A DNA stretch of 64,000 nt from Octopus vulgaris (taxonomy: Eukaryota). The DNA lies in the NCBI GenBank assembly GCA_951406725.2, contig OX597826.1, positions 43,276,001-43,340,000 of the forward strand, given 5' to 3'. Below are positions 981 to 59,630 of the stretch, in pieces (position 1 is the stretch's first letter; the number at the start of each line of letters is the position of its first letter). A program made the position numbers and the translations under genes. Under the pieces are notes generated by a model, which searched no databases, was not told the origin of the DNA, and was given only the letters and a program-made list of their open reading frames with translations.

Positions 981-1182
981 GTTGTGGTTGTTAAGCAACA
1001 AGATGGGTAAGGGTGATTAGGTGATGGTCTAGGGCTTAGGGGCGGGAGACCCCAGACCTTGGAAAAAAAACTTTGGTCGTCTTGTTGTAGTCGAGGGCTC
1101 TTCGTTGACGCCCGACACCACTGGGAGGTGACCCTCGAAGTCGCTGGATATGGAGATCTCCAGGTTCAAATTCTCGGACGGC
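981..1182 (-). mobile_element. Short non-tRNA retroposon with candidate 5' HDV-like ribozyme (copy 1)
   Basis: Reverse complement aligns with 34318-34500. Short AAC-type tail at 981-992. Flanked on both sides by (GCT)n, consistent with a TSD inside a CAG/CTG repeat. Confidence 0.85.
1091..1180 (-). ncRNA. Candidate HDV-like self-cleaving ribozyme
   Basis: Hand fold: P1 GTCCGAG/GTCGGGC (6 of 7 pair), J1/2 hairpin CTGGA/TCCAG, P2 TCGAGGGTC/GA(G)CCCTCGA, P3 ACC/GGT, L3 TCCCAGT, J4/2 CGAA, essentially no P4. Confidence 0.55.
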
Positions 1183-8811: not shown

Positions 8812-9500
8812 CAGGGGTTCGCAGCCATTTTTATCTATAAACTTTCGATTACTAATTTATTCTGGTGTATCTCCATAGCTATTTGATGTTTACAAATCAA
8901 GTTTTAAAGATACTTCTTCCAAAATTCCCCATTTTGTTTTTCACACATTAACTTGTGTAAGGTGAACTATGTATAACGTTAGAGAAAAAAACTTAACCGT
9001 TTCTTGCAATACATACCAATACATACAACTAAAGCAGAATGTTTTCAGGGGCCCTTAAAATACTATTGTGGATCCCTAATTTACTACTTCCAAAATTCCC
9101 ATTTTGTTTTTCACACATTAACTTGTATAAGTTGAACTATGTATAACGTTAGAGAAAGAAACTTAACCGTTTCTTGCAATACATACCAATACATACATCT
9201 AAAGCAGAATGTTTTCAGGGGCCCTTAAAATACCATTATGGATCCCTAATTTACTACTTCCAAAATTCCCATTTTGTTTTTCACACATTAACTTGTGTAA
9301 GTTGAACTATGCATAACGTTAGGGAAAAAAAACCTAGATGTTTCTTGCAATACATACCAATATATACATCTAAAGCAGAATGTTTTCAGGGGCCCTTAAA
9401 ATACCATTGTGGATCCCTAATTTATTATCTTATTGTGTGGACCCCACAAAATCTTAAATGGACCCTCAGGGGCGAAAAGGGCCCCGGTTGAGGACCACTG
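8812..9500. mobile_element. hAT (Charlie/MER5-like) MITE with internal 3x ~170 bp tandem repeat
   Basis: TIRs CAGGGGTTCGCAGCC / GGTTGAGGACCACTG; 8-bp TSD AGTTAACG / AGTTAACC; repeat units start at 8916, 9087 and 9257. Confidence 0.88.
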
Positions 9501-33785: not shown

Positions 33786-34317
33786 CATACACGCACATTC
33801 ACATACTCGTGCGCGTGCGCATGGACAAACATACACACACACACACATATATATAGTCAATTCAAATAAACAAGCAATTCAAATAAAAAACGCAAACTAC
33901 GAACGTGAGGGCGTGTACAGGAAATATATTAGCTTAATGCTCGGTGAAAGGAGAGAGTTTGACCTTTTGTGTATTGCGCTTCGTCAGAAAGGAGAAAGGG
34001 AAAAGTCGAAAGATGGAGAAGAAGTCGCTAACGGCACACGTGTAGTTTACAACCATCAAATAATTACACACCCATTAAAACCTCATAGTAGAAAGCGTAC
34101 TGACAGAGGTCGTTAGAATATCGGAGAGAATGCTGCTCGAAATTTGTTCAAACTCTATGTGTTCTGAGTTCAAATCGGAATAGATTGACATAAAAAATAA
34201 AATGTATCAATTCAAAAAGGCAAATAGACGAAACTTTGCAATAATTGTTTCGGTTGTATGTGTTCTGAGTTCAAAGCCTGCCTTGACCTACATGAGTAGA
34301 AGACACCATCTGCTGCC

Positions 34318-34545
34318 GCCGTTCAAGAATTTGGACCTGGAGATCTCCATTTCCAGCGACTTTGAGGGCCACCTCCCAGTGGTGTCGGGCGTCAACGAAG
34401 AGCCCTCGACTACAACAAGACGACTACAACAAGTTTTTTTTTCCAAGGTCTGGGGTCTCCCGCCCTTAAGCCCTAGACCATCACCTAATCTTGTTGCTTA
34501 ACAACAACAATAACAACAAGAACAACAACAAGAACAACAACAACG

Positions 34546-34581
<36 letters not shown>

Positions 34582-34582
34582 C
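34318..34582 (+). mobile_element. Short non-tRNA retroposon with candidate 5' HDV-like ribozyme (copy 2)
   Basis: Exact 12-bp TSD CCATCTGCTGCC (34306-34317 and 34583-34594), (AAC)n tail, homology to 981-1182. Confidence 0.9.
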
Positions 34583-34904
34583 CCATCTGCTGCCTAGTTT
34601 AACAATATCAAGTGGTACCCTGTGTGATTTCACTGGAGCATCTTCTGTTACAAACATCGAAGTTTCGGATTTAAGGATACCTATCTCTGATCTTACCACC
34701 CCTCTCGGATACCCTAGAAAAGGCTATCCCTCCCGACTAAAAGATTAAGAGTAAGCAAAAGCGAAATTTTGGTTAATTAATTAGTTGGACCTTCACCAAT
34801 TCTGTGCTGCCTTCCTATATATTTCATTTCCAGCTCATCTCAGATTGTGAAATGATCCATAGTGACGTTCTTCTCCATTCTGCACCAACTCACCTCATCG
34901 TCGA

Positions 34905-35392
34905 CATTACCAACACCACCATCACCATTCCCACCACCACCATTCCCACCACTAGCCCCAGCAGCAGCACTACTACTACCACCACCACCACCACCACCAC
35001 CACCACCACCACCACAACCAACCAATAACACCATCAGTGCCACGGCGACCAACAACAACAACAACAACATTACCAGCATCACCAGCTTCACCGGCACTTG
35101 CACCACCACCACCACCACCGTCATAACCACCACCACCACCACCATCATCACCTCCACCACCAACACCACCACAACTACCACCACCACCACCACCACCACC
35201 ACCACCACCACAACCACCACCACCACCACCACCACTACCACCACCACCACCACCACTACTACCACCACCACCACCACCATTACTACCTACACCTGCACTA
35301 CCACCACCACCACTACTACCACCACCACCACCACCATTACTACCTACACCTGCACTACCACCACCACCACCACCACTACCACCACCACCACC

Positions 35393-35423
<31 letters not shown>

Positions 35424-35630
35424 GTGGCACCGACAGAAGCTGCTGTAGTAACACTACCACCAACAAATTCACCAGCTCCAGCAGCATCGCCAGTACCACT
35501 ACAACCACCACCACCACCACCAGTCACTACCACCATCTTCACCAGCTCCCACCACTACCACTACTACCACTACCCATCTCCACCACTATCACTACTATCA
35601 CTACCACCACCACCACCACCACCACCTACT
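34905..35630. repeat. (ACC/ACT/AAC)n compound microsatellite
   Basis: Direct reading; produces poly-T/H/P/G/V pseudo-ORFs. Confidence 0.95.
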
Positions 35631-45430: not shown

Positions 45431-45488
<58 letters not shown>

Positions 45489-45498
45489 CATTATTATT

Positions 45499-45529
<31 letters not shown>

Positions 45530-45530
45530 C
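45311..45530. repeat. (ATT/ATC/GTT)n microsatellite
   Basis: Direct reading. Confidence 0.95.
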
Positions 45531-58989: not shown

Positions 58990-59290
58990 AGATTTTCAAA
59001 GCGTTTGGAATTTAAATAGAGAGAGGATGGAAATGTCTTAATGGACTCCGCATTGGATTTGGTCAAGTCAGAAATACCAATGTAAAATGAGGACCTAATG
59101 TGGAATTCCCTTTCTGTAACTGTGGAACAGTTCAAACTAAGTGTCGTCTGGTGGTCTGCTCATTAATGGATTCCTCTTGCTGATTGGATGATTTGAGAAA
59201 TAATATAAAGAATATGCAAGATAGCATAAGACTGTGGAAAGATTTGAAACAACAACAACAAAAACTACAGCAACAGCAACAATAATGATG
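58990..59290 (+). mobile_element. Ingi/Vingi-like LINE 3' terminal fragment
   Basis: One frame from 59028: WKCLNGLRIGFGQ..K*G..FCNCGTVQTKCRLVVC..LDDL..W, matching the LNRLRTG..KWG..CxCG..QT..H..C zinc-knuckle terminus, followed by an AAC-rich tail. Confidence 0.65.
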
Positions 59291-59291
59291 A

Positions 59292-59630
59292 TTTCAAATT
59301 TTGGCACAAGGCCAGCTACTTTGAGGGAATGGGTAGTCGATTACATCGACCCCAGTGCTCAACTGGTACTTATTTTATCGATTCTGAATGGATGAAAGAC
59401 CAAGTCGATCTCGGCAGAATTCGAACTCAGAACGTAACGACGAGCGAATTTTGAGGGGATGAAGGATTAGTCAATGCCGTGAACACCAGTACTCGATTGG
59501 TACTTTGTTACATTGGCCCAAGAACGATGAAAGACAAAATTGATCTCGGTCGGATTTGAACTTAGAAAGTAAAAGGACCATAACAAATGCCGCAAAACAT
59601 TTCAACCAACGACCTAACGATTCTGCCAAA
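59292..59630 (-). mobile_element. Two family A SINE copies
   Basis: TTTCAAATTTTGGCACAAGGCC...GAACTCAGAACGTAA, repeated. Confidence 0.85.

Follow-up and report, generated by a model that had tools for sequence, protein, structure and literature searches.

A short retroposon family of Octopus vulgaris, probably derived from an Ingi-like LINE, with a predicted split-P1 HDV-like ribozyme and complementary ends

Ribozyme-headed two-part derivatives of Ingi LINEs are known in trypanosomes. NARTc and RIME, from L1Tc and ingi, are non-autonomous and carry the 5' end of their LINE. The ribozyme of that head, Pr77/L1TcRz, is cut at +1 and has a 3-bp P3, a single-pair P1.1 and a P1 with three basal G-C pairs, and the LINEs themselves have 2A, APE, RT and RNase H (PMC3185411); Ingi elements in general have the 2A and no ORF1 (PMC3708506). 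Non-autonomous bipartite derivatives, made of parental 5' and 3' ends and with no small-RNA head, have also been described for RTE, Vingi, Ingi and R2 LINEs, and few clades make them, 'for unknown reasons' (Kojima 2018, PMC5786205). Regarding the HDV-like ribozymes, whose cleavage falls directly 5' of P1 (PMC4908430), drz-Agam-2-1 and those of R2 keep the core order and tolerate extra helices, placed in J1/2 or in P4/L4 (PMC4908430, PMC3774820).

Here we describe an octopus element that is an animal member of this group with a new, predicted ribozyme topology. It is like NARTc and RIME in being two-part, non-autonomous and provided with the 5' end of a LINE, and like the bipartite derivatives of the other clades in lacking a small-RNA head. 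It differs from NARTc and RIME in its animal host, in a P1 split by two hairpins (partner LINE family A) or by one base (sister family B), in the absence of P4 in family A, in its (AAC)n tail instead of poly(A), and in its preference for CAG/CAA runs. Taken as a whole, it is quite probable that we are dealing with a derivative of an Ingi-like LINE, with a predicted split-P1 HDV ribozyme and an end pairing that steers the capture of the head.

The window, that is the whole stretch of 64,000 nucleotides analysed, contains this short element at 34318..34582 of the plus strand, 265 bp that comprise the head, a LINE 3' end and the tail. It is flanked by an exact 12-bp TSD, CCATCTGCTGCC, at 34306..34317 (left) and 34583..34594 (right, both +). 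The (AAC)n tail (34500..34582, +) is unusually long for the family, with 27.3 units at 34500-34581 according to TRF; coordinates and TRF therefore agree with an earlier sequence-only reading, which had described an exact 12-bp TSD around a 265-bp unit ending in about 27 AAC repeats. A further copy (copy 1), inserted in a CAG run, occupies 981..1182 of the minus strand, running from 1182 downwards at 33.1 kb from the copy at 34306..34594, and is 92% identical to it across 173 nt. The identity of both copies from P3 to P2' (34371-34409) was confirmed, and the two P2 substitutions are indeed G-U wobbles. Near 34425 the window copy furthermore carries 5 inserted nt, and 13 nt of its LINE-derived 3' end are missing. 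The window was also searched for tRNA genes, for Rfam matches at the gathering score and for long ORFs other than those in simple repeats, and none was found; two candidates for further copies, at 45450-45530 and 59248-59327, were examined and are not copies.

The sequence-only reading had suspected a high-copy family, and the genome has at least 1,325 copies by exact matches to a 26-mer near the 3' end, while a core 36-mer has 498 exact matches; the reversed controls gave 0 in both cases. From the overlap of both probes in the first 174 Mb of C1, where 13 of 33 core matches also carry the 26-mer, we estimate 3,400-3,800 copies, a figure that is probably low. The mean divergence from the column majorities is 3.5% (82 copies). 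The 5' end is fixed: of 30 copies retrieved with the core, 28 begin at positions 1-3, as do 23 of the 26 retrieved with the 3' 26-mer after four duplicates were dropped from that set. Moreover, when contigs of four DNA-like sequencing runs from four organisms were placed on the window, their loose ends piled up at 34318 in all four (121, 99, 120 and 108 contigs), so the clustering of 5' ends, which the sequence-only reading had put forward as a check, is borne out. No contig in the four runs joined across the empty insertion site. Contigs from three organisms (X3, X5 and X7) cover the flank at 34200-34344 and extend over the first 25-27 letters of the element, which weakly suggests that the window insertion is older than the split of these three. 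The neighbouring stretch 34130-34300 holds two fragments of another abundant short repeat, with high contig depth at 34236-34275.

An exact TSD of at least 11 nt was found in 26 of 79 full-length copies and in 7 of 395 mismatched flank pairs; when one mismatch was allowed, 40 of the 79 had a TSD of 11-15 nt, compared with 19 of the 395 control pairs. These 79 copies had passed a non-microsatellite filter that is leaky. The tabulated lengths, around 11-15 bp, can be set beside the TSDs of about 12 bp that are typical of ingi/L1Tc. For L1Tc, the available text of one report gives a TSD of 9 nt, with about half of the copies having none (PMC5814959). Regarding the target, a run of CAG/CAA type in the element's orientation lies upstream of 68 of 126 copies and one of CTG/TTG type upstream of 3 of 126, so that the CTG orientation at the window copy's site is atypical for the family. 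The target usually ends in CA, with GCA or ACA terminating 69 of the 126. Interspersed copies, TSDs, a simple-repeat tail and the lack of an ORF make the family a non-autonomous retroposon mobilised by target-primed reverse transcription, as had been proposed from two copies, and the retroposition at over a thousand sites was likely carried out by the enzyme of the partner LINE.

Four loci (L003, L010, L106 and L348) are head-to-tail arrays of two or three short-element copies each, which would fit insertion either into tails of the family itself or into target runs; a ribozyme would resolve the co-transcripts of such arrays. In six independent short-element copies (L338, L343, L347, L350, L352 and L361) an element of about 200 bp sits at one and the same site, after CCCTAGAC. 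This insert resembles a hAT-type MITE with a preferred target.

A genome search with RNase H gave eight loci, and at L168 the ORF is directly followed by the 3' sequence of the short element; its RNase H has a Pfam E of 1e-11. Protein searches extended this family A to many 5'-truncated copies of around 90% DNA identity. Over their terminal 35 nt, short copy L060 does not differ from LINE copy L304 (35/35). At the other end, positions 7-165 of the short element match a LINE-linked head in L356, which runs past position 165 into LINE-only sequence common to L355, and four direct fusions (L382, L387, L395 and L399) join the head to a longer LINE 3' piece. Thus the inverted and direct joins of head and LINE, the LINE-only continuation and the alleles described below indicate that the 5' end of this bipartite derivative is the LINE's own, and by sequence the short element almost certainly consists of the family A head (1-165) plus the last 35 nt. 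A LINE with both ends, for which a search had been advised, was therefore found, an Ingi-like one, from truncated and fused copies in family A; full-length sequence is known for family B. RNase H and a C-terminal finger are the only protein domains found for family A: a full-length copy was not found, the 5'-most 326 nt gave at least 2 matches, at least 2 heads spanning the junction were seen among 30 of 32 loci, and neither a 2A, among at least 3 matches, nor the RT was found.

The sister family B has 45-50% protein identity to family A. Its L370 (L370:2808-7455; G000:C10 ~3419807-3424480), the only complete element seen, has 4,648 nt, is frame-broken and is bounded by a 12-bp TSD that abuts G1. 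From 5' to 3' it reads ribozyme, 2A-like motif, PHD, APE, RT, RNase H, C-terminal finger and tail, which is the 2A-APE-RT-RNase H layout of the L1Tc/ingi partners (PMC3185411) with a PHD added after the 2A. Assignment of the partner LINE to the Vingi clade was rejected, because it has an RNase H whereas Vingi has none (PMC13708176).

Several other elements turned up in these searches. At L365:1300-1760 a family B 5' end, from the ribozyme to 2A-PHD, stops after about 270 nt and directly follows the apparent ORF end of another LINE, presumably R4/Dong-like. A third RNase H LINE, family C, is represented by L169, L170, L171, L173, L174, L374 and L376, and its 5' end was not found among these seven loci; in L374 a 2A-PHD piece lies inverted, far away from the truncation point, and L376 shows an ordinary adjacent inversion. 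A search with RT families gave 30 loci and 10 extensions that, by eye, were CR1, RTE, Penelope and one LTR element, and none of them shares the ends of the short element. The RT matches are dominated by a young CR1-like family (L135-L157) with open frames of 949 aa and (ATT)n tails, and L160 contains an LTR retrotransposon whose gag and pol frames are long and open. A pattern that excludes the T-run gave 10 matches and no full LINE; one of them, L120, is an inverted head.

Both ends of the family A RNA are complementary. The 10 bases behind the ribozyme (5' arm, 34413..34422, +) are the reverse complement of the 10 bases before the tail, which belong to the LINE 3'-end remnant (34487..34499, +), shortened in the window copy by the 13-nt deletion. 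In family B a different 14-mer forms the equivalent end-to-end complementarity, so the duplex covaries: the pairing is 10 bp at -15.8 kcal/mol in A and 14 bp at -29.2 kcal/mol in B, and the cross-family combinations give -5.3 and -8.8 kcal/mol. Speaking against the pairing, the 3' end of L370 ranks only 4th of 301 windows for pairing with its arm. The 3' half of the short element has the end-to-end helix as its closing stem (z -4.0 for L060; 0 of 200 shuffles as low), a fold that also contains a 9-bp hairpin from the LINE 5' UTR (34447..34479, +), at whose place family B, read by eye, has a different hairpin. Behind the 5' arm lies a T-run (34434..34442, +) present in both LINE families.

The captured heads point to the same place. 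We collected 50 truncated family A loci, 49 from protein searches and L356 from a head pattern, and in 22 of them the head is joined to the 3' part, inverted in 18 and direct in 4. The inverted heads at the truncation point are 13 long and 5 short ones (7-18 nt); our script had flagged six short ones, and L387 was reassigned as a direct fusion. They end at positions 106-112 in 14 of 18 cases, at 119 in two, at 146 in one and near 185 in one, and thus mostly terminate just behind the 5' arm (34413..34422 in the window copy); positions 1-3 are reached by 9 of the 13 long ones. Inverted heads were also seen in 2 of 11 family B loci. A single ordinary local inversion (L392) was found in the last 1.16 kb of family A, the known part. 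For 14 composites the script could place the 3' end, and 11 of these have flanking TSD-like repeats of at least 10 nt; most of them sit within CAG/CAA runs, L401 being the one clear case. Inversions of L1 usually start near the truncation point. The composites resemble the products of L1 twin priming (PMC2837659): between TSDs, a 5' part in inverted and a 3' part in direct orientation meet at a joint with short microhomology. They differ from those products in that what is inverted is almost always the outermost 5' end, the head, with one priming site. As family B is 4.6 kb long, this site likely lies kilobases from the truncation point.

Among 12 captured heads, 7 carry a loop allele of LINE type, compared with 3 among 82 short copies (p 8e-6, alleles scored by eye). 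Therefore most of the captured heads came from LINE-type RNA. The remaining 5 of the 12 carry the short element's allele and could have come in trans.

The head capture is likely a twin priming plus template jumping that is steered to the head by the end pairing. The arm behind the ribozyme would pair with the 3' end of the RNA and hold the head beside the reverse transcriptase; the second DNA strand would then prime at the held head and give the inverted heads, whereas a template jump would give the direct head-tail fusions, one of which would have founded the short-element family. As to whether the pairing itself causes the capture, we lean only slightly towards it.

The main competitor, which we hold to be a real but smaller possibility, is a capture hot spot that works by annealing without any end pairing: the CA ends of targets are able to anneal to the hot-spot UG/U-run, and the priming could occur in cis or in trans. 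Most flanks of the hot-spot junctions do end in CA, as most insertions of the family generally do; the 5 of 12 heads with the short-element allele would be explained in trans by abundant short-element RNA, and dual priming has been proposed for L1 (PMC2837659). However, 7 of the 12 heads have the LINE-type allele that is rare in short copies, and the complementarity of the arms is preserved by different sequence in the two families. Furthermore, in the family B locus L312 the junction lies exactly at the arm's end and the next RNA bases, AAA, do not match the primer, and the direct fusions join in the hot-spot region too. These points argue for the end pairing as the preferred reading. An end-to-end arm with head capture was not found described for NARTc or RIME in the sources available to us, and unlike the bipartite cases already reported (PMC5786205, as far as its text goes), the octopus LINEs have visible intermediates, namely 4 direct fusions and 18 inverted heads, and a candidate cause.

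The head has the elements of an HDV-like core, all on the plus strand. The P1a 5' strand (GCC, 34318..34320) would pair with 34388-34390, and the predicted cleavage site is 34318, the 5' end of the family, where 5' ends cluster. Two inserted hairpins follow: A (6 bp, 34321..34336, in the predicted minimum-energy fold), which includes the 'P1' of the sequence-only reading and whose T/C variant at position 6 preserves the pair, and B (7-8 bp, 34337..34356), both absent in family B. The P1b 5' strand (CGAC, 34357..34360) pairs with 34384-34387. After it come the P2 5' strand (34362..34370), the 3-bp P3 with a 7-nt L3 (34371..34383), the 7-nt P1 3' strand together with the G of P1.1 (34384..34391), a 4-nt linker that replaces P4 followed by CGAA (34392..34399, with the predicted catalytic C at 34396), and the P2 3' strand with one bulged base, 34401 (34400..34409). 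P1.1 is the single pair of C34376 with G34391. The 7-nt strand after P3 therefore pairs fully with GCC (positions 1-3) plus CGAC (40-43), which in family A are separated by the two hairpins with no loose base between. All 7 pairs are present in 4 of 4 family A copies tested, whereas the P1 proposed earlier has 5-6 of 7; P1b was counted by coordinates, as the automatic alignment A2 sets it one column off.

Family B has at the split one unpaired U, a one-base bulge, instead of the two hairpins, and a short P4 hairpin instead of the 4-nt linker. Between the two families, from which all of the covariation is drawn, there are four compensatory double changes, one in P1 (G-C to A-U in P1b) and three in P2, while P3, L3 and P1.1 are identical. 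CGAA is kept in L365 and L312 of family B and is CAAA in L370, in which the folding program recovers the bulged P1 unaided. Hence the order P2, 3-bp P3, 7-nt L3, P1.1 and a C-R-A-A J4/2 in a nested double pseudoknot is there, and what is lacking is a continuous P1 of 6-7 bp, split 3+4 by two hairpins in A or by one base in B. On pairing and covariation we consider the double pseudoknot with split P1 very probable, with a predicted four-way junction inside P1 of family A; the family A head is likely an HDV-like variant that works like one. Pr77/L1TcRz has the same cut at +1, 3-bp P3, single-pair P1.1 and three G-C pairs at the P1 base, and the primers printed in that report imply a P2 order shared with the short element: C-N-A-A, G, a bulged base and GCC (PMC3185411). 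The core order and the tolerance for extra helices are those of drz-Agam-2-1 and R2, although the inserts described for them lie in J1/2 or P4/L4 and those of the short element inside the P1 strand (PMC4908430, PMC3774820); P4 is missing likewise in the B. mori R2 and abalone ribozymes (PMC3774820).

With the cleavage of HDV-type ribozymes falling directly 5' of P1, which here begins at +1, the predicted cut coincides with the 5' end of the family. A host or read-through transcript would be cut at G1, and this would fix the 5' end. That the source RNA cleaves itself is predicted, and we hold it to be probable. The alternative with the same origin, in which the family A ribozyme is a dead relic whose P1 was broken by the two hairpins and an internal promoter at +1 fixes the 5' end, appears unlikely, and several observations have to be weighed on its side or against the fold itself. 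P1 mismatches are uncommon and can abolish cleavage, and P1 defects usually impair it (PMC3774820). The J1/2 of the short element is short, 1-3 nt, and Agam-2-1 constructs with a 0-1 nt spacer showed little or no cleavage (PMC4908430). The folding energy of the 5' domain does not stand out from that of shuffled sequences (z -1.08), and a nested alternative at -31.3 is more stable than either half of the pseudoknot. In family B one distal P2 pair is C-A, with two more pairs broken in L370. Besides, Pr77 is both promoter and ribozyme, as in L1Tc (PMC5814959). Nevertheless, the 7/7 P1 pairs, P1.1, L3 and CGAA are kept, the hairpins abut without a loose base, and P1 and P2 covary with a family just 45-50% identical in protein, all of which favours a predicted ribozyme that is active in the source RNA.

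The P1 of the sequence-only reading (positions 4-10), said to be decayed in the window copy, is very improbable. In copy 1 it has 6 of 7 pairs and about the same energy as the split P1 (-12.6 versus -12.0). However, its word in the window copy, GTTCAAG, is the majority word, in 55 of 82 copies, with GTCCAAG in 14, and the better-pairing GTCCGAG is private to copy 1 (1/82); thus the P1 has not decayed. Moreover, positions 4-10 predict 5' ends at +4 where the actual ones are at +1, and the segment is absent in family B. The intact P1 begins three bases upstream of this word.

A classical Pol III SINE or mere 5'-truncated LINE 3' UTRs can practically be dismissed: the element is short, tailed and TSD-flanked and its word GTTCAA resembles a B-box core, but a tRNA, 7SL or 5S head, an A box and a full B box are absent from both strands, as the sequence-only reading had noted for one, and the LINE 3' end is only 35 nt, the 5' ends are fixed and the head is the LINE's own 5' end.

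Searches for related ribozymes gave little. Rfam has no HDV-type match for A or B, and at E up to 10 there were four weak non-ribozyme matches for A and none for B. A pattern with a changed L3 base gave 27 matches, 26 mutant short copies and 1 chance match. With the core pattern, metagenomes (at least 118 stretches) and viral contigs (9) gave at least 129 matches, of which 5 passed the P2 filter; among those listed, none was convincing by eye.

In the openly accessible texts that were searched we found no octopus Ingi-derived short element, no split P1 and no fixed-site head capture, and none of the indexed main texts contains the core 20-mers. The 2026 repeat annotation of O. vulgaris reports 1,279 unclassified SINE families and 26 I-group families; in the portions available, the main text does not use the word 'ingi', and neither 'ingi' nor 'ribozyme' appears in the supplement (PMC13282606). 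The short element may be in that library unlabelled.

An interruption of P1 by two hairpins, in an RNA of 92 nt, would widen the tolerance of the HDV fold at the cleavage helix. As a consequence, genome searches that demand a continuous P1 would miss whole families, and a four-way-junction P1, if true, would evade descriptor and covariance searches alike. The covarying end complementarity, together with 22 natural capture intermediates, makes testable the question why few clades form two-part elements. The same observations are relevant to whether insertions come out full-length or truncated when LINE-based gene-writing tools use both UTRs. The full combination, namely a looped LINE RNA, head capture in about 40% of the truncated insertions, this loop as the reason why ribozyme-bearing LINE clades give rise to two-part short elements and an active ribozyme with a four-way junction in P1, is put forward tentatively, with the odds somewhat against all of it holding at once.

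Other repeats of the window are a 700-bp (ACC)n-rich array at 34909-35626, a 184-bp dimer of another short repeat at 2486-2847 and a 170-bp tandem repeat in three units at 8911-9424.
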